Shown here: positions 3,183 to 50,015 of the stretch, in pieces
How the letters are laid out: each line of letters starts with the position of its first letter
Position numbering within the stretch: the stretch's first letter is position 1
Origin: an uncultured Pseudomonadota bacterium
Lineage (GTDB): Bacteria > Myxococcota_A > Polyangia > Fen-1088
NCBI GenBank assembly: GCA_963847705.1
Contig: CAWKBC010000001.1
Location: forward strand, 128,001 to 192,000
Reading direction: 5' to 3'
Length of the DNA stretch: 64,000 bases
Notes under the pieces: model-generated
The model's database searches: none
Seen by the model: the letters and a program-made list of their open reading frames with translations, nothing else
What the model was told of the DNA's origin: nothing
Made by a program: the position numbers and the translations under genes

Positions 3183-3209
3183 TTGCTGCGACGGAGGCGA
3201 ACTTGTCAG
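3183..3209 (-). promoter_or_regulatory. Bipartite element CTGACAA-N15-AGCAA upstream of the M41-like gene
   Basis: Degenerate copy of the window-wide motif; 10 nt before the start. Confidence 0.5.
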
Positions 3210-3254
3210 AAAATGCAACCAACCCCCAGACGACGACCTCTGGTGTCAGTCTCC

Positions 3255-3281
3255 CTGACAACGGCCGAGGCCTGCCGACAA
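3255..3281 (+). promoter_or_regulatory. Bipartite element CTGACAA-N15-GACAA upstream of the AraC regulator
   Basis: Exact match; 13 nt before ATG 3295. Confidence 0.75.
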
Positions 3282-3294
3282 GTACATAACAGGC

Positions 3295-4314
3295 ATGGAT
3301 GAGAGGGCGACCGGACGCCGCGCGAACTGGCCAAGCGTCTTGCAACCTGACGCGCCTGCGCCCACGGTGATGGCGCGAGCGGCGCGCGGTGGAATGGCAT
3401 CCCTGCTGAGGGCACTCGACGAGATTCGCTCCCTCGATGATACCGACCTCATCCTGCGCCGCGCGATCGAGCTCGCCCGCGATCGAATAGGTTTGAAGCG
3501 CGCGGGGATCTTCGTGCTCGATACCTCCCGGAGGGTGATGCTGGGGACGTGGGGGATGGATCTCTCCTGCACCGTCGTCGATGAACATCAAGTCATCTAC
3601 GAGCTCTGCGGGACCGACGAGGAGGCGCTGCGCCGCGCCGCGGACGAGAGAATGCATTTCACAGTCTTCGAGAACTGCCCGATCATCGAGCACCACCGAG
3701 GCGAGACTCGGATTGCTGGACGCGGCTGGGTGGCAAAGACGCCGATCCGATCGCGGGACATGGCAATCGGGATGATGTTCAACGACGCGGGATTGACCGG
3801 CGCTCCTTTCGACGACGCGAAGCAGGCACAAGCTGCCATCCTCTGCATGATGCTCGGGTCAGTGCTGGACCCCCTGCGCGGGCTCCATGGGCATCGGGTC
3901 GGTCCCCTCTTCGAATCGCCCAGCCAGTCGATCGTCTCCTCGACGGTCGCGATGCTGGACGCAGAGCCGGGAATGAGTGGAGGGGAGATCGCCAGGTCGT
4001 TGAACATCAGTCAGTCGCATCTCGGTCGCGCGTTCAGAGCCGTCAAAGGAATGTCGCTCGTTGATTACCGGAATCGGTTGCGCGTGGAAAAGTTCATTGC
4101 GCTCCTCGAGCGCGGTGAGACCAACCTTCTCGATGCGGCGTTGGAGGCCGGGTTCGGCAGTTATTCTCACTTCCACCGCGTGTTTTTGGAGCAACGGCGC
4201 GTGACCCCCAGCGAGCACCTTCGCCGGTTGAACAGCGGGCGTCGCGCCTCAAGGCTGTCCGACAGCGTCGAGCAGGGCCGCCACGACGGCCGTGGCCGCC
4301 GCTTCTCGAAGTGA
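3295..4314 (+). CDS. AraC-family transcriptional regulator with GAF-like N-terminal domain
   Basis: C-terminal double HTH (IARSLNISQSHLGRAF...GMSLVDYRNRLR...AALEAGFGSYSHFHRVF...TPSE); N-terminus ends in a PIRSRDMAIGMMFND GAF-like strand. Confidence 0.85.
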   Translation: MDERATGRRANWPSVLQPDAPAPTVMARAARGGMASLLRALDEIRSLDDTDLILRRAIELARDRIGLKRAGIFVLDTSRRVMLGTWGMDLSCTVVDEHQVIYELCGTDEEALRRAADERMHFTVFENCPIIEHHRGETRIAGRGWVAKTPIRSRDMAIGMMFNDAGLTGAPFDDAKQAQAAILCMMLGSVLDPLRGLHGHRVGPLFESPSQSIVSSTVAMLDAEPGMSGGEIARSLNISQSHLGRAFRAVKGMSLVDYRNRLRVEKFIALLERGETNLLDAALEAGFGSYSHFHRVFLEQRRVTPSEHLRRLNSGRRASRLSDSVEQGRHDGRGRRFSK

Positions 4315-4525
4315 TTTGCGTGACAACTTCAGATCCGGCGGGAACAACGACAGGGGACCGGCGGGGTGGGCGGTTCGGGAGTCGGACCCGACCGATCCGG
4401 GCCAGTCGAAGAGCTGGGAATATCAAAATGTCTGGACCTTTCTCGGGCAATTCCGAGGCCGACCCGGCGGTCGCATCTTCGAGGTCCCCGGGGTGAAGAT
4501 TTCTGCGGGATTTTGCTCGATCTAA

Positions 4526-4563
4526 ATATTAATCTGTTAATATCGCGTATGTGAGCTTACGCG
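4526..4563. promoter_or_regulatory. Two adjacent inverted repeats in an AT-rich patch (candidate operators)
   Basis: ATATTAA-TCTG-TTAATAT (4526-4543) followed by CGCGTA-N8-TACGCG (4544-4563), just upstream of the GGDEF-EAL gene. Confidence 0.4.
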
Positions 4564-4600
4564 TTATAGCTTATCAGATGTTGGACGAGGCGGCGTCCAG

Positions 4601-6397
4601 GTGAGCCGGGCCCTGCGCGTGAGAGCCGGCTCCCCCACCGCTGACGCCGCGCTCACCGGCGAGACCAGCGAGGAGATCTTGCAACTCGAAGACGCCATCT
4701 TCTTGCTCGAGACGTTGATGGACAACGTCCCTGACGCCATCTACTTCAAGGATCTCGACAGCCGCTTCACACGCGTCAACCGATACGCGGCCGCGCGGTT
4801 TGGCGTCGCTGGCCCGGCGCACGCTGTCGGTCGAACCGACTTCGACTTCTTCACCGGCGAGCATGCCCAGCAGGCGCTGAGGGACGAGCAAGAGATCATC
4901 CGCACCGGACAGCCGTTGGTGAACGTGGAGGAGAAGGAGACGCTGGCGAACGGCGAGATCCGCTGGGTCTCGACGACCAAGCTCCCCTTGCGCGATCGGA
5001 AGGGGGAGATCGTGGGGACCTTCGGGATCTCGCGAGACATCAGCGACCGCAAGAAGGCCGAGGAGCAGCTCCAGCGGCAGGTGTTCTACGATCCACTCAC
5101 CGATCTCCCCAACCGCGCGCTGTTCCTCGACCGGTTACAGCACCTGTTTCACCGGGCCCGGCGCTCGTTGGGCAGTCCGCAGTTCGCGGTGCTGTACCTC
5201 GATCTCGATCGCTTCAAGTCGGTCAACGACAGCCTCGGACACCAGGTCGGTGATGAGCTCCTGATCGCCACTGCGCGCCGGCTCGAACGCTGCTTGCGTC
5301 CAGGCGACACGCTGGCGCGCCTCGGCGGCGACGAGTTCACGGTCCTGCTCGACGATGTGCGCTCCGAGGCGGACGCCACGGGCGTGGCCCAGCGGATCCA
5401 TCAGGAGATGGCCGCCTCACTCGAGGTGCGGGGCGCGGAGGTGTTCACCAGCGTCAGCGTCGGCATCGCGCTGTCGAGCGCGGGCTACGAGTCCCCCGAG
5501 GACATGCTGCGGGATGCGGACACGGCGATGTACCGAGCGAAGGAAGGCGGGCGCGCCGGCCATCGGGTGTTCGACGGGGACATGCACCGACGGGCGGTCT
5601 CCTCCCTGCGGCTCGAAACGGATCTTCGACGCGCGCTCGAGCGTCAGGAAGTCGTCCCCTACTACCAACCGATCGTGGAGCTCGACACGGGCACGTTGGT
5701 CGGGTTCGAGGCGCTCGCGCGTTGGCGGCATCCGACCAGGGGAATCCTTCTGCCCGATCTCTTCATTCCCGTCGCGGAAGAGACCGGGCTGGTCGTGGAG
5801 CTCGGTGCCCGGATGCTGGAGGAGGCCTGCCGGCAGGCGCGCGAATGGCAGCGCGCGCATCCGCGCTGGTCGGCGCTCGGGATGAGCGTCAACGTCTCCG
5901 GCCGACAGCTCTCCCAGGGCGGCCTCGCCGCCGAGGTCGAACGCGTGCTGGCCGCGACCGGCCTGGAACCCACCAGTTTGACCCTCGAGATCACGGAGAG
6001 CGCGCTCATGCACAACCTGACCGCCGGAGCGGTAACGGTCGAGCGCCTGCACGCCATGTCCGTCGGCCTGCACCTGGACGACTTCGGGACGGGCTACTCC
6101 TCGCTCGGGTACCTGCAAAGCCTCCCCGCGCAAGGACTGAAGATCGATCGTTCCTTCGTCAGCCGCATGGACCAGGCGCCGCAGCAGCTGGCGATCGTCA
6201 AGGCGATCGTTTCACTGGCACAGGATCTCGGGATGGAGGTGATCGCCGAGGGGCTCGAGACGCGGGCGCAGGTGGAGACCCTCCGCGCGTTCGGCTGCCG
6301 GCTCGGGCAAGGATTCCGGTTTTCGAAGCCACTGCCCGCGGAGCAAGCGGAGCGGCTCCTCGCCAGCGGCGTTCCCACCATCTACAAACGACTCTAG
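4601..6397 (+). CDS. PAS-GGDEF-EAL diguanylate cyclase/phosphodiesterase
   Basis: PAS (IYFKDLDSRFTRVN...WVSTTKLPL), intact GGDEF, FEALARW, LDDFGTGYSSL, LKIDRSF. Confidence 0.95.
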   Translation: MSRALRVRAGSPTADAALTGETSEEILQLEDAIFLLETLMDNVPDAIYFKDLDSRFTRVNRYAAARFGVAGPAHAVGRTDFDFFTGEHAQQALRDEQEIIRTGQPLVNVEEKETLANGEIRWVSTTKLPLRDRKGEIVGTFGISRDISDRKKAEEQLQRQVFYDPLTDLPNRALFLDRLQHLFHRARRSLGSPQFAVLYLDLDRFKSVNDSLGHQVGDELLIATARRLERCLRPGDTLARLGGDEFTVLLDDVRSEADATGVAQRIHQEMAASLEVRGAEVFTSVSVGIALSSAGYESPEDMLRDADTAMYRAKEGGRAGHRVFDGDMHRRAVSSLRLETDLRRALERQEVVPYYQPIVELDTGTLVGFEALARWRHPTRGILLPDLFIPVAEETGLVVELGARMLEEACRQAREWQRAHPRWSALGMSVNVSGRQLSQGGLAAEVERVLAATGLEPTSLTLEITESALMHNLTAGAVTVERLHAMSVGLHLDDFGTGYSSLGYLQSLPAQGLKIDRSFVSRMDQAPQQLAIVKAIVSLAQDLGMEVIAEGLETRAQVETLRAFGCRLGQGFRFSKPLPAEQAERLLASGVPTIYKRL

Positions 6398-6460: not shown

Positions 6461-7978
6461 TCAGACCCGCCGTCGACGGCGGGCAAGGGCGAGCAGGGCA
6501 AGTCCAAGGGCAAGGGCGGCTTCCAGGTCGGCGTGTGCCTTCCCCGTCGCTCCGCCAAGCGCACAGCTGCAGCCGCCACTGGAGTCGGACTCGGTCCCGC
6601 CGGACGAGCCGCCGCTTCCCACCTCTCCGCCGGTGCCGGCGCTCGAGGTTCCGCCCGAGCCGCTGCCTCCGGTCGCCGCCTGACCGCCCGTCGCGCTGCC
6701 GCCGGCGCCGAACGCTCCGCCGGTGCCAGTCGCGCCGCCCGAGCCCGGTGTGCCGCCGGTCCCATTGCCGCCGCTGCCCGGCGTCCCTCCCTCCCCCGAC
6801 GCTCCACCGGTCGCTCCGTTCCCTGCGTGCCCGCCGACGCCGCCGCCCCCGCCGCCTCCGACAGAGCCGCCGCGCCCCGCCGATCCCCCGCTTCCGCTGG
6901 TTCCGCCGGTGCTCCCGCCCTTGCCGCCAGCGCCGCCGCTGCCGACGGCGCCTGCGCCTCCACCTGCGCCACCAGCTCCTCCCGTCGAGCAGGCGGCGAT
7001 CTCGGGATCCACCGGACCGGTCTTGTCGAGACCCAAGAAGGGGACGACGTAGGTCGCGTCGAAGAGAGCGTCCGAGGGGCCGTGATCGCCGCCGATCGAC
7101 GTGAAAGCATCGAGGACGACGTAGCCGCACGAATTCTTCCACTGCTGCCGCGTCGCCTGGTGAGTCCCCAGGGTCAGCCCGGTCGTCGTCGACGTCGGGC
7201 TGGTGCTCAACCCCAGAACGTTGGTCCACTGCTTGATGGCTTCGCCGAAATTTTTGTAGCTGATGGTGGGATCGGAGTCGCCGTGGAAGAGCTGCACGCG
7301 GGGGCGAGGTCCCGTGTATCCCGGGTCCATTCCCCGCGCGAGATCCCCCCATTGCTGCGCGGTCATGATGTCGTTGCCGCCCGCGCAGGTCCCACCCCAG
7401 TTGCTGGCGGCGCTCCAACCGTCGGACCAACATCCGGCCGGCACCCCGGCGAACGAGGCGCCCCCCTTGAACACGTCGGGGTAGACGGCCATCAGCGCCT
7501 GCGTCATCATCGCGCCCGACGAGTCTCCCGTCGCGTACACGCGATCGGCGTTGGCGCCGTACTTGGTGATCGTGTACTTCACCATCTCTGCGATGGCCTG
7601 GGTGTCGCCGCCGCCGTCGTGCGTGAGCGAGGCCTTCGAGCCGACGTCCCAGCATTTCGCGGAGGTCGCGGGGTTGGTCGTCTGCGGGAAGATCATGATG
7701 AAGCCGTACTGGTCGGCGGCCGCCACGACCCCGCCCCCTTGCGCCTGCCCAAAAACGGCGGAGGCACTGCCTCCGCAGAAGTGCGAGACGACCAGGATCG
7801 GCGGGTCCGTCGCCAGCTTGTCCGGCACGTAGATGTACATGCTGATGTAGCTGGGGACGCCGCTCGCTCCCCAGTTGCTGACCGGCTGCAGCGACGCCGC
7901 CTCAGCCGGCCTGGCCACCAGCCAGCCGAGCAACGTGGTGAGGAGGAGAACACGCGCAACGGTAACCCTGGGGGACAT
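6461..7978 (-). CDS. PHB-depolymerase-family/CE1-like esterase (acetylxylan or feruloyl esterase) with Gly linker and MYXO-CTERM tail
   Basis: Signal peptide; MYIYVP, HFCGG, KCWDV, GDSSG nucleophile, FHGDSD, GDH; tail GGCSC...hydrophobic...RRRRR; start moved to ATG 7978. Confidence 0.85.
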   Translation of the reverse strand: MSPRVTVARVLLLTTLLGWLVARPAEAASLQPVSNWGASGVPSYISMYIYVPDKLATDPPILVVSHFCGGSASAVFGQAQGGGVVAAADQYGFIMIFPQTTNPATSAKCWDVGSKASLTHDGGGDTQAIAEMVKYTITKYGANADRVYATGDSSGAMMTQALMAVYPDVFKGGASFAGVPAGCWSDGWSAASNWGGTCAGGNDIMTAQQWGDLARGMDPGYTGPRPRVQLFHGDSDPTISYKNFGEAIKQWTNVLGLSTSPTSTTTGLTLGTHQATRQQWKNSCGYVVLDAFTSIGGDHGPSDALFDATYVVPFLGLDKTGPVDPEIAACSTGGAGGAGGGAGAVGSGGAGGKGGSTGGTSGSGGSAGRGGSVGGGGGGGVGGHAGNGATGGASGEGGTPGSGGNGTGGTPGSGGATGTGGAFGAGGSATGGQAATGGSGSGGTSSAGTGGEVGSGGSSGGTESDSSGGCSCALGGATGKAHADLEAALALGLALLALARRRRRV

Positions 7979-7987: not shown

Positions 7988-8013
7988 TTGTCCGACCCGC
8001 GAAAAATTGTCAC
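7988..8013 (-). promoter_or_regulatory. Bipartite element GTGACAA-N14-GACAA upstream of the CE1 esterase
   Basis: 9 nt before ATG 7978; no Shine-Dalgarno in between. Confidence 0.65.
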
Positions 8014-8100: not shown

Positions 8101-8127
8101 GTGACAAGAGGGCGGCCCGAGGGACAA
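8101..8127 (+). promoter_or_regulatory. Bipartite element GTGACAA-N15-GACAA upstream of araB
   Basis: Exact match; 18 nt before ATG 8146. Confidence 0.75.
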
Positions 8128-8145: not shown

Positions 8146-9831
8146 ATGAGTGGCAACGCCTGTGTGGTGGGGATCGACTTCGGCACCGACTCGGTGCGCA
8201 GCATCGTCGCTGATGCGACCACGGGAAGCGTCCTCGGCACTTCGGTAAGGAACTACTCCCGGTGGGCCGACCGGCTCTATTGCGCTCCGGTCGACAACAG
8301 GTTCCGGCAACACCCGCTCGACTACCTCGAAAGTATGGAAGCGGCGGTGCGGGAGGCGCTCCGGGAGGCGGGGCCGGCGGCGTCCGCCCTGGTGCGTGGC
8401 ATCGCGGTGGACACGACCGGTTCCACGCCGGTGCTGGCCGACCGATCGGGCGCGCCCTTGGCGCTCAGCGCCCCGTTTGCCGAGAACCCCAACGCCATGT
8501 TCGTCCTCTGGAAGGACCACACCGCCGTCGCCGAGGCCGAGCGGCTGAATCGTCTCGCGCGGACGTGTGGCGGGGTGGACTACACCAAATACGTCGGCGG
8601 GATCTATTCGTCGGAATGGTTCTGGGCCAAGGCGATTCACGTCCTCGAGACCGACCCGGCGGTGGCCGAGGCGGCGGTCACCGTCCTCGAGCATTGCGAC
8701 TGGATTCCCGCCGTGCTCACCGGCACGACCGACCTCGCGCGGTTCAAACGAAGTCGCTGCGCCGCCGGACACAAGGCCCTCTGGCACGCGGAGTTCGGTG
8801 GCTACCCGTCGGACGCGTTTCTCGCGAAGCTCCACCCCAAGCTTCCGGCGCTCAAGAAAACACTGGGGACGGAGACCTTCACCGCCGACGTGCCCTTCGG
8901 CGCGCTCTCGGCCGAGTGGGCGGCCAAGCTCGGCCTGTCGCGCGAGACGGTGGTGGCGGTGGGCGCGTTCGACGCTCACATGGGCGCCGTGGGCGGAGGC
9001 ATCGGCCGGAACCGACTGCTCAAGGTGATGGGAACGAGCACCTGCGACATCGTCGTCGCGGCTCCTGCCAATGAGCCCGAGAAGCTGGTCGCCGGGATCT
9101 GCGGGCAGGTCGATGGGTCGGTCATTCGAGGCATGATCGGCTATGAGGCCGGCCAGTCCGCGTTTGGAGATGTGTACGCCTGGTTCAAGGCGCTCCTCTC
9201 CTGGCCTCTCGAAGCCATCTTGCCGACGCTGACCGGCATCTCGGACCTGGTGAAGCGTCAGGTGGCCGACGGCATCGCTGAAAAGATCATCCCGGCGCTG
9301 GAACAGGGTGCGACGGCTTTGAACGTCGAGGAGACGGTTCCCGTCGCGCTCGATTGGTTGAACGGTCGGCGGACCCCGGACGCCAATCAACGACTCACGG
9401 GCGCCATCACCGGCCTCCGGTTGGGCACCGATGCCCCTCGCATCTTTCGGAGCCTGGTCGAAGCCACGGCGTTCGGCTCTCGGGCCATCGTGGAGCGCTT
9501 TCGCGCCCAGGGGATCCGGATCGACCGCGTCATCGCCATCGGCGGCGTGGCCAAGAAGAGCCGCTTCGTGATGCAGACGATCGCGGACGTCATGGGCCTC
9601 GAGGTTGCGGTGGCGGCCGGTGATCAGCCTGTCGCGCTGGGTGCCGCGATGTTTGCCGCCACGGCGGCCGGTCTCTATGGCCAGGTCGAAGAGGCTCAAC
9701 AGGCGATGTCGGCCGGCACCGAGACGGTCTATCGCCCCGAGCCTATCCGCGTGAAGCGTTACGACAGTCTCTACAAAGAGTATTTGGCGCTGGGCGCGTT
9801 TGTGGAGACCGGGCTGAAGGACAACTCGTGA
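8146..9831 (+). CDS. araB: Ribulokinase
   Basis: GIDFGTDSVR, FRQHPLDY, LWKDHTA, YVGGIYSSEWFWAK, LDWLNGRRTP; first gene before araA and araD. Confidence 0.95.
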   Translation: MSGNACVVGIDFGTDSVRSIVADATTGSVLGTSVRNYSRWADRLYCAPVDNRFRQHPLDYLESMEAAVREALREAGPAASALVRGIAVDTTGSTPVLADRSGAPLALSAPFAENPNAMFVLWKDHTAVAEAERLNRLARTCGGVDYTKYVGGIYSSEWFWAKAIHVLETDPAVAEAAVTVLEHCDWIPAVLTGTTDLARFKRSRCAAGHKALWHAEFGGYPSDAFLAKLHPKLPALKKTLGTETFTADVPFGALSAEWAAKLGLSRETVVAVGAFDAHMGAVGGGIGRNRLLKVMGTSTCDIVVAAPANEPEKLVAGICGQVDGSVIRGMIGYEAGQSAFGDVYAWFKALLSWPLEAILPTLTGISDLVKRQVADGIAEKIIPALEQGATALNVEETVPVALDWLNGRRTPDANQRLTGAITGLRLGTDAPRIFRSLVEATAFGSRAIVERFRAQGIRIDRVIAIGGVAKKSRFVMQTIADVMGLEVAVAAGDQPVALGAAMFAATAAGLYGQVEEAQQAMSAGTETVYRPEPIRVKRYDSLYKEYLALGAFVETGLKDNS

Positions 9832-9905
9832 GCTACGAAAGACGTCTTCGCTTGGCTTCCCGCGGCGGCCAGGAATGGTCTGAACGAAATGAGGACATTG
9901 GAGCA

Positions 9906-11411: not shown

Positions 11412-11418
11412 GCTGCCC

Positions 11419-12144
11419 ATGAAATCGATCTACGCCGATCTGAAAGAAGAGGCCTGGCGGGCGAACATGGAGATCCCGCGCCGGGGGCTGGCCATCTACA
11501 CCTTTGGCAACGTCTCGGCGTTCGACGCCGGGCGCGCGGTGTTCTCCATCAAGCCGAGCGGAGTCGCTTACGAGAACCTCACCGTCGCCGACATGGCCGT
11601 GGTCGACGTCGAGGCCAACCTGGTGGAAGGACACCTCCGGCCATCATCCGACACCAGGACGCACGCCGCGCTCTACCGCGCCTTTCCGGGCGTGGGCGGG
11701 ATCGTCCACACCCACTCGACCTATGCCACCGCCTGGGCCCAGGCGGGCCTGTCGATCCCGATCTACGGCACGACCCACGCAGACCACCTGACCGAGGACG
11801 TCCCTTGCACCGCGGTCATGAGCCCCGAGGCGGTCGAGAGAGACTACGAGGCGGAGACGGGCAAGCAGATCATCGACTGCTTTCGCACGCGTGATCCACT
11901 CCAGACGCCGATGGTGCTGGTGGCCGGGCATGGAGCGTTCGCCTGGGGCAAGACGGCGGACAAGGCGGTGTACCACGCCGTCGTCCTCGAAGAGCTCGCC
12001 AAGATCGCCTCCATCACGCGCAGCCTCGATCCCGGCGCGCGTCGCCTGCCGGAGCACCTCGTTCGCAAGCACTTCGAGCGCAAGCACGGGAAGAGCGCCT
12101 ACTACGGGCAATCGGTCGTCACGCTTCGCAAACCGGCCGGTTGA
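11419..12144 (+). CDS. araD: L-ribulose-5-phosphate 4-epimerase
   Basis: TFGNVS, IKPSGV, PSSDT, VHTHS, YGTTHAD, HFERKHGKSAYYGQ. Confidence 0.95.
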   Translation: MKSIYADLKEEAWRANMEIPRRGLAIYTFGNVSAFDAGRAVFSIKPSGVAYENLTVADMAVVDVEANLVEGHLRPSSDTRTHAALYRAFPGVGGIVHTHSTYATAWAQAGLSIPIYGTTHADHLTEDVPCTAVMSPEAVERDYEAETGKQIIDCFRTRDPLQTPMVLVAGHGAFAWGKTADKAVYHAVVLEELAKIASITRSLDPGARRLPEHLVRKHFERKHGKSAYYGQSVVTLRKPAG

Positions 12145-12177
12145 ACAGCCGGAAAAACCCGGGAGGACGGGTCAACC

Positions 12178-13890: not shown

Positions 13891-13917
13891 CTGACAACGC
13901 CAGCCCGGGCCAGACAA
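13891..13917 (+). promoter_or_regulatory. Bipartite element CTGACAA-N15-GACAA upstream of the orphan anti-sigma-like gene
   Basis: Exact match. Confidence 0.65.
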
Positions 13918-18748: not shown

Positions 18749-18766
18749 GGCGCGGCGCGCTCAACC

Positions 18767-22503: not shown

Positions 22504-22530
22504 TTGTCCGTTCGGCGGGACTTTGTTCAC
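22504..22530 (-). promoter_or_regulatory. Variant element GTGAACAA-N14-GACAA upstream of the GH54 gene at 22487
   Basis: 16 nt before ATG, with a GAGGA Shine-Dalgarno in between. Confidence 0.5.
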
Positions 22531-22691
22531 AATTCCTCTCGAGTCCCCGGGAAAGCCCGATGGGATGCGTTCCGAACAAATCCGTCGCGTCATCTGTCGG
22601 TTCGGAGGACTTTGTTCAACGGTTTTTCTGGTGAAGATTTTTTGGCCGGCGCCGCCCTTCCACGGCGAACCCGTATGATAGTGAGGAGCCA

Positions 22692-26390: not shown

Positions 26391-26417
26391 GTGACAACAG
26401 CGGGCTCCCGGGGACAA
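26391..26417 (+). promoter_or_regulatory. Bipartite element GTGACAA-N15-GACAA upstream of the GH54 gene at 26465
   Basis: Exact match; 47 nt before ATG. Confidence 0.7.
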
Positions 26418-29695: not shown

Positions 29696-29843
29696 CCCGC
29701 TCCTGACCAGGCTGGCCACCGGCCGTTTTCAAATCGACCCGGGGCGCCTCGGCGCTCGACGGCCCTCCCTCCACCGGCCGGCTTGGGCCTCAGGCTGTGA
29801 GCGTCGAGGAGGATCCGGCTCTCGATCTCGGGCGCGACGCCGT

Positions 29844-31013: not shown

Positions 31014-31040
31014 TTGTCGGGGAGCAGGAATCTTTGTTAC
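31014..31040 (-). promoter_or_regulatory. Variant element GTAACAA-N15-GACAA upstream of the GH54 gene at 31001
   Basis: 12 nt before ATG; no Shine-Dalgarno. Confidence 0.6.
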
Positions 31041-36411: not shown

Positions 36412-36438
36412 TTGCTCGTCGGCCGATGCAGTTGTCAC
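36412..36438 (-). promoter_or_regulatory. Variant element GTGACAA-N15-AGCAA upstream of the GH30 gene at 36318
   Basis: Degenerate second half-site; 93 nt before ATG. Confidence 0.45.
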
Positions 36439-38606: not shown

Positions 38607-38633
38607 TTGTCGTCTCGCGTCCCCGTTTGTCAG
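38607..38633 (-). promoter_or_regulatory. Bipartite element CTGACAA-N15-GACAA upstream of the GH30 gene at 38511
   Basis: Exact match; 95 nt before ATG. Confidence 0.7.
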
Positions 38634-38922: not shown

Positions 38923-38924
38923 CT

Positions 38925-40543: not shown

Positions 40544-40569
40544 TTGTCGGCGAGCAGCCGGCTTGTCAG
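40544..40569 (-). promoter_or_regulatory. Bipartite element CTGACAA-N14-GACAA upstream of the GH27 gene
   Basis: 8 nt before ATG; no Shine-Dalgarno. Confidence 0.65.
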
Positions 40570-41926: not shown

Positions 41927-41953
41927 TTGCCGTGAGGACGGCGAAGTTGTCAC
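41927..41953 (-). promoter_or_regulatory. Variant element GTGACAA-N15-GGCAA upstream of the CBM-like lipoprotein
   Basis: One mismatch in the second half-site; divergent from the copy at 42031. Confidence 0.55.
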
Positions 41954-42030: not shown

Positions 42031-42057
42031 ATGACAACAGAACGGCGAGAACGACAA
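42031..42057 (+). promoter_or_regulatory. Bipartite element ATGACAA-N15-GACAA upstream of the GH10 gene
   Basis: Exact core match. Confidence 0.7.
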
Positions 42058-42162
42058 ACATTCAAAACCACGTGCCAGGTCGACGGTCGCGTGCGCGCGG
42101 CGGTTCACCCGAGCCCCCAACTTCGATGGGACGGATACATGCGTCGATCTGATGGACTGTTC

Positions 42163-43464
42163 ATGCGACGGATCGGGACCGGTGTCGCAATGATGGCCAT
42201 GCTCGGCCTGTCATGCGCCGGCAGCGAGGATGTCACCTCTGGAGCTGGCGGTAGCCCCGGCAGCGGTGGCGCCAGCGCGGCGACCGGCGGCGCCAGCTCG
42301 GCGAGCGGCGGCGCATTCGGGTCGGGCGGGATCTTGGGGAGCGGCGGCAACGGAGCAGGCGGCGTGACGGGGACCGGCGGAACGGAGACAGGGGGCATCG
42401 CAGGCGGCGGTGCGTCCGGGTCCGCGGGCGGAGGCACGTCGGGACGGGCGGGCAGCGGCGGCGCGGGTGCCGGCGGACGAGGCGGTGAGGCCGGCGCCCC
42501 GGGGCGCGGCGGCGCGGCCGGTGCCGGCACCGTCGGTGCTGCCGGGACCTCGGGCACGGGCGGCACCACCGGGACTGGAGGTGGCGGAACCATCCAGTGG
42601 CCGAAGAAATTCTTGGGGAACATCACCCAGCGCGGCCAGATCCCCTCGAACTTCACGACCTACTGGGATCAGATCGTCCCGGAGAACGAGGGGAAGTGGG
42701 GCTCGGTCGAAGGGACGCAAGGCCAGTACAACTGGACCGCGCTCGACAACATTCACAGCTTCGCCAAGCAGCACAATATCCCCTTCAAGGAACACAATTT
42801 CGTCTGGGGGAGCCAGCAGCCGGGCTGGATCGGTGGCCTGTCGCAAGCCAACCAGAAGGCGGCGGTCGAGGACTGGATCAAGCAGTTCTGCACCCGTTAT
42901 CCGGACACGCAGATGATCGACGTGCTCAACGAGCCACCGCCTCACACGACGCCGTCCTACCTGGCCGCGCTGGGCGGTGCCGGTGCCAGCGGTTACGACT
43001 GGGTCATCACCATCTTCAAGTGGGCACGTCAGTACTGCCCCACCTCGATCCTGATCGTGAACGATTACAACATCATCGAGCAGTCGGGCGACAACAACAA
43101 CATGATCAAGCTCGTCACCAGCGCGATGAAGGGGGGCGCGCCGATCGACGCCATCGGGGCTCAGTCGCACGGTCTGACCAACGCCTCGGCCAGCACCACG
43201 CAGATGTACATCGACAAGCTGTCCTCGTCGACGGGCCTGCCGGTGCTGATCAGCGAGTTCGACCTCAACATCGCCGACGACACGCAGCAAAAGAATCAGA
43301 TGCAGAGCCTGTTCACCATGTTCTGGAACGACACCAACGTGAAGGGCGTCACCTACTGGGGGTACATCCAGGGCGAGACCTGGGAGACGAACACCTGGCT
43401 CCTGAGCAGCGGCGGCACAGAACGTTCGGCGATGAGTTGGCTCATGCAGTTCGTCGGACGGTAG
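42163..43464 (+). CDS. GH10 endo-1,4-beta-xylanase lipoprotein
   Basis: Lipobox GLSC; PENEGKW, HNFVWGSQQP, DVLNEP, NDYN, IGAQSH, ISEFD, TYWG. Confidence 0.93.
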   Translation: MRRIGTGVAMMAMLGLSCAGSEDVTSGAGGSPGSGGASAATGGASSASGGAFGSGGILGSGGNGAGGVTGTGGTETGGIAGGGASGSAGGGTSGRAGSGGAGAGGRGGEAGAPGRGGAAGAGTVGAAGTSGTGGTTGTGGGGTIQWPKKFLGNITQRGQIPSNFTTYWDQIVPENEGKWGSVEGTQGQYNWTALDNIHSFAKQHNIPFKEHNFVWGSQQPGWIGGLSQANQKAAVEDWIKQFCTRYPDTQMIDVLNEPPPHTTPSYLAALGGAGASGYDWVITIFKWARQYCPTSILIVNDYNIIEQSGDNNNMIKLVTSAMKGGAPIDAIGAQSHGLTNASASTTQMYIDKLSSSTGLPVLISEFDLNIADDTQQKNQMQSLFTMFWNDTNVKGVTYWGYIQGETWETNTWLLSSGGTERSAMSWLMQFVGR

Positions 43465-43493: not shown

Positions 43494-43520
43494 GTGACAC
43501 AAACGGTGGCCGCCAGACAG
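43494..43520 (+). promoter_or_regulatory. Variant element GTGACAC-N15-GACAG upstream of the GH39-CBM6 gene
   Basis: 20-bp period kept; 8 nt before ATG; no Shine-Dalgarno. Confidence 0.55.
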
Positions 43521-43528: not shown

Positions 43529-46021
43529 ATGAGGACCATTCTGAATCCGGCCGCTGCGATCGGCGCCCTCGCGCTGGCGCTGCTGACGGGGCCGCGCGCG
43601 GCGAACGCCACCAACTACACCATCACGGTAGATGCATCGAAGCAGACCGCGGGCAACCCGCCTTTCTGGGCGGCCAGCGTCGGGACGGGCACGGCCAGCC
43701 TCACGCTGCGGTCCGATCTCGAGACGCACTACAAGATCGGCGCCCGCGAGGCCGGCTTCAAGCGCGTGCGTGGTCACGGCGTCCTCAGTGACGCCATGGG
43801 CATCTACAAGGGTCCCGGCTCTTACAGCTGGACGAACTTCGACAAGTACCTGGCCGCCATCGTCTCGGCGGGGATGCGCCCGATCATGGAGATGGACTTC
43901 ATGCCGACGGCCCTCGCGCTGAACGGCAACGACAAGGACATCTACAAGAGCGTGACCGACTACAAGAACTTCATCCAGGCGGTGGTCCAGCACTGCGTGG
44001 ACAAGTACGGCATGTCGGACGTCTCGCAGTGGTACTGGGAGATCTGGAACGAGCCCGACTATCCGGGTTTCTGGAACGGTTCGAACTCCAGCGAGGCGAC
44101 CAGCGCCAAGATGACCGAGTACTACAGCCTCTACGACGCGGCGGTCGCCGCCATCACCGCCGTCTTGCCCAGCGCCTTCGTCGGCGGGCCGACCACGACC
44201 ACCTACGGTCCCATCGGTGACTTCTTGAAGCACTGCAAGAGCGCGGGGACTCGCGTGACCTTCGCCTCGTCGCACGTCTATCCGGGCGGTGCGAACACTG
44301 GCTCCTCGGCGGACGCCAATGGGCTGGTGAGCGACAACAACAGTCGAATCAGCCAGATCACCAGCGGCGGTTACACCACCTCCTCGGTGATGTCGTTCAA
44401 CACCGAGTGGAACTCGTCGTACTCCGGCCAGGGCGGCCTCGCCGGTGACGTCGTCACCAGCATGGACAACAACTGGAACGTCGGCTTCATTCTCAAGGGG
44501 ACGAAGCTGCTCTCCGACAAGAACTCGGGCAACACGCCGCCGCTCAGCGTGTTCTCGTACTGGGTGCTGTCGGACGTCTTCGACGAATCGAGCGGCCCCT
44601 CCGGCTCCTACATTCTCGGCCAGACGGCAAATGGAACGCTCCCCTTCGGTCAGGTGTTCGGTCTCATGACCTTCCAGGGGATTCGCAAGGCGTCCTTCAA
44701 CGCCTTCAAGATGCTGAACTACCTCGGCCCCACGCGCCTGCAGTCGAGCGGCGGCACCAGCAGCGACGGCGTCGACGCCATGGCCACCACGTCGAGCAGC
44801 GGCGACTCGATCCAGATCCTGGCGTACGACCAGTACGCGACGCTCAACACCACCGGCACCGACAGCGTGACCATCAACGTGAGCAACTTGCCCTCCGCGC
44901 TGGCCGGCAATCAGGTCTTCGTCACGCAGTTCATCGTCGACGCCACCCACAGCAACCCGTACAGCGTCTGGACCAGCCAGAGCAAGCCGACCGCGCCGAC
45001 CGAGGCCCAGCTGCAAGCCATGAAGGCGGCGCAGCACCTGGCGCTCCTCCAGCCGGTCAGCATGGCGACCCTCACCACCTCGTACACGACCACCTTCACC
45101 ATGAACCGGCAGGCGGGGACGCTTCTCATCCTCAGCCTGAAGCGCCCGGTGACCGGACGCGACGGTCTTGGAACGATGGAAGGCGAGGACTACGACGGCC
45201 AATCGGGCGCGACCAAGGAAGACAGCAACGACACCGACCTGGGCCAGTCGATCTCCGTGACCAGCGGCGGATCGATCTTCTACGACGTGGTCGACTTCAG
45301 CGACGCGGGCGTCGGCTCCGTGCAGATGCGCGTCAACGCCTCGGCCGCGACCAACCTCGAGCTCCACGCCGACTCCGCCACCGGCACGCTGCTCGGCAAG
45401 TGCGCCGTCAGCGCCACCAGCGGCGCGTGGGCCACGCAGTCTTGCACCCTGACCCCGATCAGCGGCGTTCACACGCTCTACGTGGTCTTCGACGGCGCCG
45501 CACACCTCAACTGGCTTCTGTTCCAACCGGCCTCGACCAGCACGACCGGGACCGGTGGGAGCGGCGCCGGCACGGGCGGCTCGAGCGGCACCGGCGGAGT
45601 CGGGGGCAAGAGCGGCGGGACCGGCGGCACGGGAACCACCGGCGCCGGTGGTACGGGAACGACCGGCACCGGTGGCACGGGAACCACCGGGACCGGCGGC
45701 ACGGGAACCACTGGCACGGGCGGCACGGGAACGACCGGCACAGGTGGCGCGATCGTCAGCGGCACGGGCGGCACTGGAACTCCCGGCGCGGGTGGGTCAG
45801 GGACCGGCGGCACTGGCACCGGGGGCTCGGGTACGAGCTCAGGGACCGGCGGCTCCGGATTTGGCGGAGGCACGGGCTCCGGTGGAGCGTCTCCAGCCAG
45901 CGGCGGCAGCGGCTGCGCTTGCGACGTGGGCGGTTCGACGGGAGCGCCAGGAACGGGCCTTCTGCTCGGGCTGGTGATGGTGGTGGCCGGCGTTCGCCGA
46001 CGGCGCGGCGCACGTCGCTGA
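43529..46021 (+). CDS. GH39 beta-xylosidase-like enzyme with CBM6-like domain, Gly/Thr linker and MYXO-CTERM
   Basis: RVRGHG, MEMDFMP, WEIWNEPD, NTEWN, FGL; EGEDYD...VDFS...LELHADSATG..LG...GVHTLYVVF (CBM6-like); GCACDVG...TM...RRRR. Confidence 0.9.
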   Translation: MRTILNPAAAIGALALALLTGPRAANATNYTITVDASKQTAGNPPFWAASVGTGTASLTLRSDLETHYKIGAREAGFKRVRGHGVLSDAMGIYKGPGSYSWTNFDKYLAAIVSAGMRPIMEMDFMPTALALNGNDKDIYKSVTDYKNFIQAVVQHCVDKYGMSDVSQWYWEIWNEPDYPGFWNGSNSSEATSAKMTEYYSLYDAAVAAITAVLPSAFVGGPTTTTYGPIGDFLKHCKSAGTRVTFASSHVYPGGANTGSSADANGLVSDNNSRISQITSGGYTTSSVMSFNTEWNSSYSGQGGLAGDVVTSMDNNWNVGFILKGTKLLSDKNSGNTPPLSVFSYWVLSDVFDESSGPSGSYILGQTANGTLPFGQVFGLMTFQGIRKASFNAFKMLNYLGPTRLQSSGGTSSDGVDAMATTSSSGDSIQILAYDQYATLNTTGTDSVTINVSNLPSALAGNQVFVTQFIVDATHSNPYSVWTSQSKPTAPTEAQLQAMKAAQHLALLQPVSMATLTTSYTTTFTMNRQAGTLLILSLKRPVTGRDGLGTMEGEDYDGQSGATKEDSNDTDLGQSISVTSGGSIFYDVVDFSDAGVGSVQMRVNASAATNLELHADSATGTLLGKCAVSATSGAWATQSCTLTPISGVHTLYVVFDGAAHLNWLLFQPASTSTTGTGGSGAGTGGSSGTGGVGGKSGGTGGTGTTGAGGTGTTGTGGTGTTGTGGTGTTGTGGTGTTGTGGAIVSGTGGTGTPGAGGSGTGGTGTGGSGTSSGTGGSGFGGGTGSGGASPASGGSGCACDVGGSTGAPGTGLLLGLVMVVAGVRRRRGARR

Positions 46022-47802: not shown

Positions 47803-49206
47803 CTAGTTCATCGGGAAGGCCTGGATGTAGAGCTTCTGATTGCTCCCGCCGCTGCAATCCCAGATTTGCATCGGCAGGCCGGGCGAGGTGCTTCCGGCAT
47901 TTTCGTCCATGCAGCGATTGGCCTGGACGTTCTTGAAGATGAAGGCGCCGGTCTGGGCGTCCGCGGTGATGTTCCAGGCCTCGCTCGGCTTTCCGGCCTG
48001 ACAGTCGTTGATCCGGAGCTGGGTCGAGTTGCCCAGCGAGCTGCCGCTGCCTGCCAGGTCGATGCACTTGGTGTTGTTGGCGTTCATCACGATGTGCCAG
48101 TTCGGTCCGTCGGGGAGCAGGTTGAACATCTGGGGCGTTCCGTTCCAGGTCGTGTACTGCTGGACAGTGGTCCCGTCAGTGGTCGAGCCGTTGGCGATGT
48201 CGAGCGAGACGTTGCCGCCACCGGTCAGCGGAGCCAGACGGTAGATGTAGCCCGAGTCGAAGACCGGCGTGTAGTTGTTGTTGCGCCAGACGGTGATGCC
48301 GTGCTGCCAGACGCCGCCATTCGAGGGGCTGGTCAGGGCCTTGTAGCCATCGGGGCAGCCAGCCGCGGGATTCGTGTTCGAGCCGGGAGGGCAGCTTCCC
48401 CCGACCCCAGCGCTGAATTGCCCCACCGATCCAGGCGCATTCTGGCAGAGCGCGCCGCTGCCGAACGGGTTGACGTAGGGAGCGCCGACCTGATTGGCGC
48501 CGAGGCGACCGGCGACGACGCCGCTGGCGCCGCCGGGGAAGCCCGCACCCTCGCAGTAGTAGGCGACCGGCGCGACCACGGTGGGCTTGGAGAGGTTGGT
48601 GAGCGATCCGGTGTCCAGGATGTCGCCAAAGAAGGTCCCCTCCTGCATCGGGTAGTTCACCCGATCGACGCCCCAGCCGATGCTCGGGTCATTGGAGTCG
48701 AGCCAGAGGGGGACGTGAACCCCCGCGGTGTTGACGTGGGCGATCATGCAGGCGGAGAGGCCCTCCATGCAGGTCGAGTTGGTCGAAACGCCACCGTTCT
48801 TCCAGGCGGGGCAGAGACCAAGCCCGCCTGCGTAGGTGTAGTTGACGCCATTCTGATCCTGCTTGACCAGCGTGTCGTTGGCGTTGAGGGCGCACTTGAC
48901 CAGGTAGGAGATCGTCTTGCGGCCGCCCGAGGTGGTCATGAGGCCATTGATCGACGACAGGCCGTTGATCGACGACAGGCCGTTGATCGACGACAGGCCA
49001 TTGATCGACGACAGGCCGTTGATCGACGACAGGCCGTTGATCGACGACAGACCGTTGATCGACGACAGGCCGTTGATCGACGACAGCGCGAAATCGTGAC
49101 TGGTGGTCTCGACGTCGCCAGCCTGGTCACCGCCGCAGCCGATGAGGCCCACGATGGCGCCGAGCGCGATGCTGATCTGGATGGTTCTTTTACCGAGTTC
49201 TCGCAT
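47803..49206 (-). CDS. Lipoprotein with (LSSING)8 repeat, Cys-rich core and C-terminal ricin-B (CBM13-like) lectin
   Basis: Lipobox LIGC; tandem repeat; QxW-type subdomains (VQQY..QMF, KCIDL..EAW, RCMD..QIWDC..NQK). Confidence 0.8.
   Translation of the reverse strand: MRELGKRTIQISIALGAIVGLIGCGGDQAGDVETTSHDFALSSINGLSSINGLSSINGLSSINGLSSINGLSSINGLSSINGLSSINGLMTTSGGRKTISYLVKCALNANDTLVKQDQNGVNYTYAGGLGLCPAWKNGGVSTNSTCMEGLSACMIAHVNTAGVHVPLWLDSNDPSIGWGVDRVNYPMQEGTFFGDILDTGSLTNLSKPTVVAPVAYYCEGAGFPGGASGVVAGRLGANQVGAPYVNPFGSGALCQNAPGSVGQFSAGVGGSCPPGSNTNPAAGCPDGYKALTSPSNGGVWQHGITVWRNNNYTPVFDSGYIYRLAPLTGGGNVSLDIANGSTTDGTTVQQYTTWNGTPQMFNLLPDGPNWHIVMNANNTKCIDLAGSGSSLGNSTQLRINDCQAGKPSEAWNITADAQTGAFIFKNVQANRCMDENAGSTSPGLPMQIWDCSGGSNQKLYIQAFPMN
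48943..49086. repeat. 18-bp tandem repeat, 8 copies (GCCGTTGATCGACGACAG)
   Basis: Eight near-identical units read directly from the sequence; encodes LSSING on the minus strand. Confidence 0.97.
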
Positions 49207-49494
49207 GATGGTTTCCCCCTGAGGCAACCCGGCTGACTGCGTGAGTCCCGATGGTTTTGCGTCCCCCGATCGCTCGGGGTTTGCGGTTTGGTCACAGGTG
49301 CTGCTGATGGACACAGGGATACAAAAGCAGTAATCAGGCCAACCATTTTTTTAGTGAAATAGCGGCTCAATGGGGAGTTTGGACACCATCCGTTGTTGCC
49401 AAAACAACAGAATGGATGTCGCCGAGGCAACGCTTGGCGAGGACGCGTGACGCAGGGGAGGCGTCGCTGGCGCCGCGATGCGGCACGAAAAATC

Positions 49495-49665
49495 TCAGTC
49501 GCGCAGAGCTTTTAGTATTCGGCGATGGCGCCCATCGCGGACGTGGACGCGCTTGCACCGAGCAGAACAGGCAAAGACGACGATCCGGGCTTTCTCGCAG
49601 ATCGTGCAAACCCAGAACGAGGCGATCGGCTGGCGGCAAACCGAGCAGCTCTGTGCACCGGGCAT
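49495..49665 (-). CDS. Small zinc-finger protein (HIT/MYND-like), 56 aa
   Basis: CSVC-X9-CTIC-X9-CSARC-X3-H-X5-H; ATG 1 nt after the upstream stop. Confidence 0.55.
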   Translation of the reverse strand: MPGAQSCSVCRQPIASFWVCTICEKARIVVFACSARCKRVHVRDGRHRRILKALRD

Positions 49666-49666
49666 G

Positions 49667-49896
49667 TCAGGTGGGCTCAAAAGGCTGGTTCGAACCGGTC
49701 CCGGTGAGGCGCGGTCGATAATCTCTGGGCTGGCGCGCGTCAACGACCTGGCAGGTCAGCTCCTCGGCCGCCTCTCGATCGAGCGGCAGCGTGACCGGTC
49801 CGACGGTGATCAGGAAGCCACGAGCCGAGGGACAACCTCCAGGTGGGCCCTAACATTCCGAAATCTATGTTTCTTTCCGGGCTTTCTGATCGCCAT
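49667..49896 (-). pseudogene. Small hypothetical gene interrupted by an apparent 1-nt deletion near 49835
   Basis: MAIRKPGKKHRFRNVRAHLEV joins CPSARGFLITVGPVTLPLDREAAEELTCQVVDA... if one base is restored; motif 14 nt upstream; stop abuts the zinc-finger ATG. Confidence 0.4.
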
Positions 49897-49910
49897 CCCG
49901 CTCTGTGTAT

Positions 49911-49937
49911 TTGTCTCGTCCACCTCCGCATTGTCAT
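49911..49937 (-). promoter_or_regulatory. Bipartite element ATGACAA-N15-GACAA pointing at the small-gene pair
   Basis: TTGTC at 49911 and 49931 on the plus strand. Confidence 0.7.
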
Positions 49938-49988
49938 GGAACCGGGGGTACGCAATCGCACCACCCATCCCGAACCCTGACAGGTTGT

Positions 49989-50015
49989 CTGACAAGGCAG
50001 GGCAGATCGCGACAA
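49989..50015 (+). promoter_or_regulatory. Bipartite element CTGACAA-N15-GACAA upstream of the ECF sigma factor
   Basis: Exact match; 17 nt before GTG 50033. Confidence 0.75.

Follow-up and report, generated by a model that had tools for sequence, protein, structure and literature searches.

A probable ECF sigma factor promoter element, TGACAA-N15-GACAA, upstream of hemicellulose genes in an uncultured member of the Polyangia

The DNA analyzed here (the window) is a 64-kb stretch of the 6.1-Mb genome of an uncultured member of the Polyangia. Within it, a plus-strand locus (49990-54756) opens with TGACAA-N15-GACAA (49990..50015), the predicted autoregulatory promoter of an ECF sigma gene (50033..50584) whose GTG start lies 17 nt downstream. 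The 183-aa product, a member of what we call clade A with the helix IPLFTVYSRLRK, is the predicted reader of the motif; it consists of regions 2 and 4 only (Pfam Sigma70_r2 and r4_2; TIGR02937 above cut-off), its best PDB relatives are SigW, SigH, CnrH and SigE, and an 80%-identical paralog at G000:C27:349913 (G000 being this genome) is also a predicted motif reader. The sigma stop codon overlaps by 4 nt with the gene for a predicted 224-aa anti-sigma (50581..51255), a common arrangement. We found no Pfam domain in this protein, which is predicted to have N-terminal sigma-binding helices, a hydrophobic helix at about residues 60-80 (present in 40/43 cases), a Pro-rich linker and a TPR-like C-terminus. 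A complex model of the sigma with the anti-sigma N-terminus scored 0.77 against 0.29 for the best control, passing a mark reached by 116/157 solved pairs and 2/215 mismatched pairs, although resemblance to sigma/anti-sigma pairs of known structure may account for part of this pass. Agreement between runs was 80% of contacts or better, the partner pLDDT was at least 70, and the model favors binding of the two proteins. We predict that the coupled downstream gene encodes a one-helix anti-sigma.

Further along the same strand lies the gene for a predicted outer-membrane protein (51378..52475; for 44/60 homologs a sigma homolog lies no more than 2.5 kb away), with a predicted N-terminal alpha/beta domain, Pro linker, small OmpW/OmpX-like beta-barrel and terminal Phe. 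A variant site, TGAGAA-N14-GAGCA (52473..52497), precedes a second, tandem ECF sigma (52518..53066; 64% identical, helix IPKFTVYSRLRK), followed by a second anti-sigma-like gene (53063..53737) and a gene for a lipoprotein-like product with a predicted nucleoside-hydrolase fold (53734..54756; 22/44 homologs have a sigma homolog no more than 2.5 kb away), speculatively a candidate sugar sensor. The only FecR match in the window belongs to an unrelated pair at 57069.

A preliminary description of this DNA had listed eight exact N15 and two N14 copies of the element, and we found a copy at every position given; a T directly precedes the first GACAA in 10/10. Pfam matches confirmed the identities of the targets it named (araBAD, glycoside hydrolases, a CE1 esterase, the AraC regulator and the ECF sigma). 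On the plus strand, exact N15 copies precede an AraC-family regulator gene that we read as a target (site 3256..3281; gene 3295..4314, ATG 13 nt downstream), araB-araA-araD-lamB (8102..8127; 8146-13743, start 18 nt downstream), GH54 plus a frameshifted GH11 (26392..26417; GH54 26465-28555) and GH10 (42032..42057; 42139-43464). The copy at 13892..13917 is followed first by an orphan anti-sigma-like gene (14085-14714) and only then by GH39 (14802-16748). On the minus strand, an exact N15 copy (38607..38632) precedes GH30 (36610-38511), and N14 copies precede a CE1-like esterase gene (7988..8012; 6461-7978, start 9 nt downstream) and GH27 (40544..40568; 38925-40535, ATG 8 nt downstream, predicted leaderless). 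The minus-strand exact copy at 49911..49936, divergent from the sigma promoter, does not precede a CAZyme gene; the next genes are two tiny ORFs, a small one with its ATG at 49896 and a 56-aa CxxC ORF (49495-49665).

The seven degenerate copies proposed earlier fared less uniformly. Four, all on the minus strand, scored 20.5-25.8 against a matrix built from the promoters of 25 sigma genes, all of them in other genomes: TGACAA-N15-AGCAA at 3183..3208, before a 168-aa ORF (2666-3172) without a Pfam match; TAACAA-N15-GACAA at 31014..31039, 12 nt from the start of GH54 (29844-31001); TGACAA-N15-AGCAA at 36412..36437, before GH30 (34663-36318) and two esterases, one of them of the GDSL type; and TGACAA-N15-GGCAA at 41927..41952, before a Gly-rich lipoprotein-like ORF (ending at 40659) without a Pfam match. 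The plus-strand site at 4321..4347 (N16, AACAA) is marginal (16.6), with a PAS-GGDEF-EAL gene beginning some 250 nt further on; the genes that follow it and the site at 3183 are non-carbohydrate ones. TGACAC-N15-GACAG at 43495..43520 (plus strand) is weak, with a score of only 3.1, yet the ATG of GH39-CBM6 (43529-46021) lies exactly 8 nt downstream. The minus-strand site at 22504..22529, before GH54 (20535-22487), is a distinct clade-B-type variant, TGAACAA-N14-GACAA, and has one other copy in the genome, the promoter of a paralogous sigma. A second B-type site is present at 22594-22618.

Genome-wide, TGACAA-N15-GACAA occurs 11 times, with 8/11 copies inside the window. Varying the gap k from 5 to 60 gave 11 copies of TGACAA-Nk-GACAA for k=15 and 4 for k=14, whereas none of the remaining 54 lengths gave more than 2 (mean 0.48). 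From the counts at other gap lengths, about 0.005 N15 copies would be expected per 64 kb; random placement of the 83 GACAA pentamers present in the window would give 0.054. The placement between genes also held: by our own codon-based gene caller, 11/11 N15 copies are intergenic and 0/11 genic, against an intergenic share of 15%. Of five exact copies outside the window, two lack a called same-strand gene adjoining. The matrix returned 18 matches of at least 20 in this genome, 18/18 intergenic and 13/18 in the window. Among related genomes of the genus, 23/24 carry the motif, before non-homologous genes on separate contigs, and reversed-pattern controls gave only 0-1 matches per genome. An exact copy is absent from G200, G190 and G008 although all three possess the sigma; their sigma promoters have variant -10 boxes.

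Autoregulation is indicated by the distribution of the motif among sigma genes. Across the 68 sigma-70 region-2 loci of this genome, an upstream score of at least 20 was obtained for the two clade-A sigmas only, and the next-best two (score 16) are tandem paralogs of clade-A sigmas. Over a set of 160 distinct sigma genes, drawn from related genomes that are not independent and with clade box patterns defined only after inspecting the sequences, the promoter boxes covary at the sequence level with the predicted DNA-reading residues of the sigma. Clade-A genes carry TGACAA-N14/16-nnCA[AG] upstream in 38/54 cases (the exact motif in 19); sorted by helix, TGACAA goes with F-T in 38/54, TGACGG with N-T in 15/23 (mostly paired with CCCAA), TGAGAA with K-T in 3/3, TGAT[AG]G with S-T in 2/2, T[GA]AACA with F-G in 21/36 and CCAA/CAAAA with G..RLY in 6/10, off-diagonal cells holding 0-4. 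In a single genome, G109, sigmas of three clades (L337, L354, L381) coexist, and the variant differs from clade to clade. The code is not one-to-one, as the clade-A pattern is missing from 16/54 clade-A genes and also found before non-A sigmas (4/17 tandem-type, 3/10 A2 and 2/36 B). Since the halves change independently with the recognition helix (TGACAA, TGACGG, TGAGAA or TGAACA; GACAA versus CCCAA), the direct repeat appears to be a coincidence.

The geometry is likewise that of an ECF promoter. The site lies 14-20 nt upstream of the start codon of the 50033 sigma and its closest orthologs, and among the 41 of 77 cases overall in which the first in-frame start falls within 3-22 nt of GACAA, 15 have it at exactly 8 nt (nominal P 6e-10, from kin sequences that are not independent), a pile-up expected of leaderless transcripts. 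A purine is found 8 nt after GACAA at 83/107 sites. A T precedes the second GACAA at 4/107 sites, the T-tract and T flank belonging to the first half only, and the 15-nt spacers are unrelated among copies (at most 0.38 bit of information per position). The N15 peak, the 8-nt start peak and the purine bias agree with ECF spacing; from these we infer the +1 itself, such that transcription would begin some 8 nt past GACAA and the mRNA would often be leaderless. Promoters of E. coli sigmaE, described as a 7-bp -35, 16 nt and then the -10, with 25-28 nt from -35 to +1 (PMC1312014, PMC1540707), match those predicted here in spacing and in the distance between -35 and +1.

In relatives, 46/77 first downstream ORFs encode glycoside hydrolases (39), esterases (5), AraA or LamB. 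The commonest hydrolases are GH54 (12), GH39 (8), GH62 (3) and GH11 (3), with two each of GH10, GH27, GH43, GH5 and GH51 and single cases of GH67, GH28 and GH30. Many hemicellulase genes of this genome lack a clade-A site: sites scoring at least 20 precede 2/11 GH54, 0/7 GH11, 1/5 GH30 and 0/6 GH43 genes. Of the GH5/GH9/GH13/GH43 genes here, 0/30 have a site upstream. Outside the genus the link is weaker (5/13 scanned ORFs are GH or esterase genes; other targets include RNase H, E1 dehydrogenase and PIN). The regulon is scattered across several contigs, not confined to one locus.

Taken as sequence evidence, target content, autoregulation, sigma-promoter covariation and geometry support both the hemicellulose regulon and the first of two models put forward in the preliminary description, an ECF promoter. 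We consider it very probable that the element comprises a -35 (TGACAA, after a T-tract) and a -10 (GACAA) read by the 50033 sigma and the C27 paralog; both sigmas would drive transcription of their own genes and of a regulon for arabinoxylan and hemicellulose. In our working model, the coupled one-helix anti-sigma would keep the sigma at the inner membrane until a periplasmic signal frees it, and autoregulation of the sigma gene would amplify the response. A second tier may consist of AraC, response regulators and further sigmas, and paralogous sigmas with other -35 boxes may drive other gene subsets. The least certain step is the signal, perhaps a hemicellulose-derived sugar acting via the outer-membrane barrel or the nucleoside-hydrolase-fold lipoprotein. 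If this reading is true, a self-activating sigma switches on hemicellulose digestion in uncultured myxobacteria.

Counting against an ECF promoter, a sigma70-like TANNNT lies 2 nt after GACAA at 7/107 sites, and also before several tandem sigma genes. Together with the resemblance of TGACA to the sigma70 -35 box and the presence of response-regulator genes among the targets (3/77 first downstream ORFs), this would suit a direct-repeat docking site for some response regulator or repressor, beside or over an ordinary sigma70 promoter. We regard this as improbable: TANNNT occurs at no more than 2/107 sites at any other distance of 0-15 nt, one trans-acting factor would leave the clade-specific variants within one genome unexplained, and among the 68 sigma loci the motif marks its own clade only.

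Less probable still is the second model proposed earlier, in which the AraC protein encoded at 3295 binds the element as its operator, two pentamers two helical turns apart, and activates a downstream sigma70 promoter. The spacing does equal that of the HrpX PIP box, given as TTCGB-N15-TTCGB-N30-32-YANNNT (PMC13436205), an exact copy precedes the AraC gene itself, AraC-type genes recur among the targets (three near targets), and the AraC family, like the sigma, is found in 22/24 genus genomes. However, (i) the motif (at most 1.5 mismatches) precedes 3/31 AraC homologs (3295 itself, its 95% ortholog and one beside a sigma) and is absent from 28/31; (ii) YANNNT lies 30-32 nt downstream at 2/107 sites, with 0-5 at control offsets; (iii) many start codons are only 6-20 nt from the motif; (iv) the halves, with the T-tract and T on the first only and each diverging independently with sigma clade, are not a true repeat; and (v) G007 (94% complete) has four sigmas, three sites and no AraC match with all 24 candidates scored, and G215 has five sigmas, eight sites and no AraC match among 10/18 candidates scored. 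The AraC gene thus looks like a target and not the motif reader, and the likeness to the PIP box is one of spacing, with no downstream -10, unequal halves and no AraC-gene link here. Least probable of all is a role in the RNA, as a translation signal or a site for an RNA-binding protein, or an origin by duplication within this island. Strand specificity, nearness to start codons and the concentration of 8/11 exact copies in one island might suggest such readings. Against them, starts 6-9 nt after GACAA would leave the element mostly outside the transcript, if leaderless; spacers are unrelated between copies; and the motif recurs across the genus before non-homologous genes, with very few reversed-pattern matches.

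The ECF promoter we favor has several known counterparts. With sigmaE-type ECFs it shares a region 2 + 4 sigma, a bipartite promoter, autoregulation and, as predicted, an anti-sigma at +1. SigmaE has Trp in region 2.3 and Arg in region 4.2, at both of which the 50033 sigma has Tyr, and its regulon concerns envelope stress as opposed to hemicellulases and arabinose catabolism. The E. coli sigmaE promoter is GGAACTT-N16-TCAAA, whereas the boxes here are TGACAA/GACAA plus an upstream T-tract. ECF promoter specificity is described as varying with recognition-helix residues (PMC7776599).

There is precedent in Clostridium thermocellum sigmaI-RsgI for paralogous alternative sigmas governing plant-polysaccharide enzymes, from promoters that combine a conserved -10, a -35 with an A-rich 3' end and, further upstream, a variable part that sets specificity (PMC6056542). 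The promoters here follow a similar logic, but the sigma family and boxes differ (CGAA -10 there). RsgI bears carbohydrate-sensing modules, whereas the anti-sigma here has a TPR-like tail, and the host is diderm with a predicted outer-membrane partner. SigI-RsgI identity was rejected given the ECF-type sigma, the GACAA -10 and an anti-sigma without a Pfam domain. Glycan genes under the control of an ECF sigma and its anti-sigma, with signalling through a Gram-negative envelope, the logic shared with Bacteroides PUL control and FecI-FecR, have also been described (PMC10766802). We rejected FecI/FecR-type signalling, as Pfam found no FecR domain in the 50581 anti-sigma and no TonB-dependent transporter or receptor among the window's matches; further differences are that the co-occurring outer-membrane protein is predicted to be a small barrel whose N-domain lies in the periplasm, and that the regulon extends over several contigs.

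None of the ECF group texts of Casas-Pastor 2021 lists TGACAA/GACAA boxes. These texts give ECF210, ECF216, ECF220 and ECF267 as myxobacterial groups, with promoters of the first three not conserved, a +1 TM anti-sigma for ECF216 and FecR-like anti-sigmas, unlike that at 50581, for ECF267; by these group descriptions, ECF210 and ECF216 are candidate groups for the 50033 sigma. ECF218 subgroups (s28/s33/s41) have comparable boxes, TGCAAG / CGACA, but are actinobacterial, and ECF21, which also pairs an ECF sigma with a beta-barrel, either as part of the anti-sigma or encoded at +2, has GCAACC/CGTCT. ECF-type control of polysaccharide degradation is known from other plant-degrading bacteria, and what would be new here is its use of a sigma family for whose promoter we found no description. 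It is a tentative idea, and one we would put at well short of even, that the Polyangia possess a Gram-negative counterpart of clostridial sigmaI-RsgI, in which paralogous ECFs share a -10 and split the hemicellulase genes by -35, each served by a TonB-independent relay through the envelope that joins a small outer-membrane barrel with its periplasmic domain, a TPR-tailed one-helix anti-sigma and a repurposed nucleoside-hydrolase-fold lipoprotein as pentose sensor.

The TGACAA-N14/15-GACAA element is real. The ten exact copies (all 11 bases) that the preliminary description had placed in the window are at their positions and each reads TGACAA-N14/15-GACAA; of its seven degenerate copies, four score highly with a matrix built from 25 sigma promoters of other genomes, and the remaining three are a marginal copy, a variant of paralog type and a weak copy. 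In the whole genome (G000; 6.1 Mb, 85% complete) there are 11 copies with N15 and 4 with N14, whereas the remaining 54 gap lengths average 0.48. Copies were said to lie between genes, and all 11 N15 copies genome-wide do so, intergenic DNA being only 15% of the genome. The matrix scan gave 18 sites at >=20 bits, all 18 intergenic and 13 of them inside the window (1% of the genome). The pattern also recurs in 23 of 24 genomes of the genus, with reversed controls giving 0-1 each; in genomes of other families the exact 11-base pattern is uninformative, at 0-8 copies and often near the reversed-pattern control. Two exact sites elsewhere in the genome, at C21:163463 and C27:339325, have no same-strand gene called nearby, the second being aimed back at the end of a GH11 gene; either might belong to a small gene or an antisense RNA.

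We consider it very probable that the element is an ECF promoter, read by the sigma encoded at 50033-50584 (+). This was one of two readings offered at the outset, and it is supported by a motif at the sigma's own gene, by boxes that follow the class of recognition helix and by sigmaE-like geometry. The exact motif lies 17-18 nt before the start of both this gene and its 80%-identical paralog on contig C27. The sigma family has six members in this genome. In a comparison of all 68 sigma-70 loci there, a score >=20 is reached at these two alone, and the next-best scores are at their tandem paralogs. Across 76 family members the exact motif precedes 21, and most other clades have variants equally close to the start. 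Homologs number at least 1472 proteins at E 1e-40 or better, the best 120 coming from metagenomes and MAGs; the family of genome G034 gave 0/59 matches with 58 candidates scored per genome, too few to show absence. The window encodes one more ECF sigma, a third that is unrelated and paired with a FecR-type protein (56449-58412, +); no motif lies upstream of it.

We grouped 160 distinct sigma genes according to recognition helix, having first set aside 38 duplicates, 9 genes whose helix could not be read, 4 short hits and 1 gene lacking upstream DNA. Each helix class had its own -35 box, with 0-4 genes in the off-diagonal cells; the box patterns were chosen after inspection, and related genomes are not independent. 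TGACAA goes with the F-T helix of the cognate sigma (38/54), TGACGG with N-T (15/23, the commonest -10 being CCCAA), TGAGAA with K-T (3/3), TGAT[AG]G with S-T (2/2), T[GA]AACA with F-G (21/36) and CCAA/CAAAA with G..RLY (6/10). Two classes are split: F-T-G has T[AG]GCAA (6/10) or TGACAA (3/10), and [RK]-F-T has TGAGAA (5/17) or TGACAA (4/17). A single genome, G109, holds three sigma clades with three different promoters. A quick tree of the sigmas served only to order rows. In an alignment, the class-varying residues fall on the SigW helix IPVGTVKTRIH, and in sigmaE numbering they correspond to G168, T169, S172 and F175. Passages of PMC1540707 name T169, S172 and F175 of sigmaE among the -35 contacts. 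A T-tract accompanies the first half of the motif only, T preceding the second GACAA in 4/107 sites; the direct repeat is a coincidence. Genome counts of TGACGG-N14/15-CCCAA are non-discriminating (6 in G000, which is without the N clade, and 4-7 in carriers), and the loose patterns for the T (tandem) and D variants are too unspecific for defining regulons. TGACGG-N14/15-CCCAA is also the conserved promoter of a broader ECF clade (helix PLNT.YSRLRLAR) that occurs in several other families (loci L344, L345, L376, L377, L381 and others).

The sigmaE promoter, as given in parts of PMC1540707 and PMC1312014, has GGAACTT at -35 to -29, 16 nt and TCAAA, with 25-28 nt from -35 to +1. Aligned to it, TGACAA occupies -34 to -29 and GACAA -13 to -9, and +1 falls 8 nt past GACAA, where a purine stands in 83/107 sites. 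Start codons cluster at this same position, which takes 15 of the 41 first in-frame starts found within 3-22 nt (77 in total); ATG triplets are commonest 8 nt (15) and 6 nt (8) past GACAA. The pile-up is consistent with leaderless mRNAs.

The other initial reading was that the AraC-family regulator encoded at 3295 binds the motif as HrpX binds the PIP box. Presence and absence within the genus cannot separate the two proteins (22/24 genomes each), and the regulator's own gene carries the motif. Among 31 AraC homologs, only this gene, its 95% ortholog and one beside a sigma do so, and sigmas and sites coexist in genomes where no match to it was found: in G007 every candidate was scored and none matched, and G215, G181 and G176 gave no match with candidates partially scored. 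A PIP-type -10 box (as defined in the part of PMC13436205 consulted) is at background level, in 2/107 sites, and start codons about 8 nt past GACAA leave no space for one. An AraC operator with PIP geometry was rejected on the homolog count, the PIP-type -10 count and the genomes that have sites but gave no AraC match among the candidates scored. A housekeeping sigma70 promoter was rejected because the genome has only 11 exact copies, concentrated at CAZyme and sigma genes. The sigma-read promoter may in places be overlapped by a housekeeping one giving basal sigma expression, as a small TANNNT peak 2 nt past GACAA (7/107) might indicate.

Sites do precede the targets first listed: Pfam matches place araBAD, three GH54, GH10, GH27, two GH30, GH39 and a CE1-like esterase, plus LamB, behind them. 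Other sites lead into regulators or small ORFs. To survey the regulon, we retrieved 80 regions, each around an exact site that does not precede the cognate sigma (79 in genomes of the genus, 1 in G215); roughly twelve further sites were omitted because they sat close to a contig end or duplicated a site in a closely related genome. The 77 first downstream ORFs comprised 39 glycoside hydrolases (mainly GH54, GH39, GH62, GH11, GH10, GH27, GH43, GH51 and GH5), 5 esterases, AraA, LamB, 11 regulators (sigmas, anti-sigma-like, AraC, response regulators) and 20 other or unassigned. In G000, none of 11 GH5, 4 GH9, 9 GH13 and 6 GH43 genes scores >=16, against 13/5055 genes overall at >=20; this and the hydrolase-rich downstream ORFs indicate that the regulon leans toward arabinoxylan/hemicellulose. 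Scores >=20 occur at 2/11 GH54 and 0/7 GH11 genes, and the regulon is part of the hemicellulase set, not all of it. The GH54 gene at 22487 and the clade-B sigma share the rare TGAACAA-N14-GACAA form, and several other adjacent-island genes have GACAG with different -35 boxes. Outside the genus the target link is weaker (5/13 scanned ORFs). Directly behind exact sites at L186, L215, L237, L250 and L253, with ATG always 8 nt past GACAA, is a secreted family of ~570-600 aa with no Pfam match, whose members are candidate new carbohydrate-active enzymes; the motif marks unannotated secreted proteins such as these as likely hemicellulose-active.

Several neighbours deserve mention. After a GH54 gene, a GH11 xylanase (28570-29706, +) has its lipoprotein N-terminus and catalytic domain (29024-29695, Pfam GH11) in different frames, either a real frameshift or an assembly error. 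Behind the -49911 site, 49495-49896 (-) holds a frameshifted small ORF, intact in G001 (L101; ~70 aa), and a 56-aa Cys-rich (CxxC) ORF conserved there. A secreted protein (47803-49206, -) has eight tandem SINGLS repeats and, at its C-terminus, a ricin-type lectin domain. At 16745-20479 and 22692-26303, the CAZyme island includes two large membrane proteins that match nothing in Pfam and a transketolase/GT2/SDR cluster, possibly for surface-glycan modification. The island goes on through C1:192000-230264 (L265-L267) with GH54, GH29, GH31, GH43-CBM6, GH39-like and GH2 genes and two more sigma/anti-sigma/barrel/lipoprotein modules, with GACAG promoters and other -35 boxes.

The gene after the sigma (50581, a predicted anti-sigma) usually overlaps the sigma stop by 4 nt; its homologs have a hydrophobic helix (40/43) and a conserved TPR-like tail. 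In a complex model, residues 1-58 on the sigma scored 0.77 against 0.29 for the best control, with runs sharing >=80% of contacts and partner pLDDT >=70; 116/157 solved pairs reach the model mark, as against 2/215 mismatched pairs. The model supports putative binding of the sigma by the anti-sigma N-terminus. An orphan anti-sigma-like gene without a sigma (14085-14714, +) lies under an exact site, as do similar genes in G017 and G019 (L228, L229). It could act in feedback inhibition or be left over from a deleted sigma. The protein encoded at 51378 is predicted to combine an alpha/beta domain with a small OmpW/OmpX-like barrel (pLDDT 87.5), with 44/60 homologs <=2.5 kb from a sigma. It also adjoins distant sigma-family members in other families, so it need not be sugar-specific. 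The lipoprotein encoded at 53734 has a nucleoside-hydrolase fold (PF01156 in 25/30 homologs, TM ~0.6), with an N-terminal Asp motif departing from the canonical one; it is found in 18/24 genus genomes and 0/16 others, half of its copies adjoining a sigma. That either protein senses sugar is speculation.

The system would work as an ECF regulon: the sigma type, the motif at its own gene, the promoter geometry and the covariation of boxes with helix all agree with one, and an anti-sigma partner is predicted. ECF control of polysaccharide degradation is known; for this lineage, promoter and envelope module we found no description, nor did our literature search, which covered sources outside subscription journals, find one of the motif or of myxobacterial ECF control of hemicellulases. 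In the available parts of the Casas-Pastor classification (PMC7826278), myxobacterial groups lacked genomes and conserved promoters, and no ECF group text names the TGACAA/GACAA boxes, which may be present unnamed in logos given as images. A term search of the Todor supplement (PMC7776599), as far as accessible, gave 0 hits; its entries are likely coded by taxon id and matrices, and the boxes may again be present unnamed. The sections seen of a 2024 review (PMC10766802) state that ECF control is not as well understood for hemicellulase genes as for cellulase genes, and they do not include Sorangium. What is supplied here is a sigma, its predicted promoter, a genus-wide conserved regulon and a candidate anti-sigma, together with naturally occurring helix/promoter variants, which could act as orthogonal ECF switches; a heterologous host would suffice for testing all of these, with no need to grow the organism itself. 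The system belongs to neither of two known groups, yet it shares with sigmaI-RsgI, in the portion of PMC6056542 consulted, the logic of a constant -10 and a variable -35 part, and with the Bacteroides ECF systems, in the same sections of PMC10766802, its purpose.
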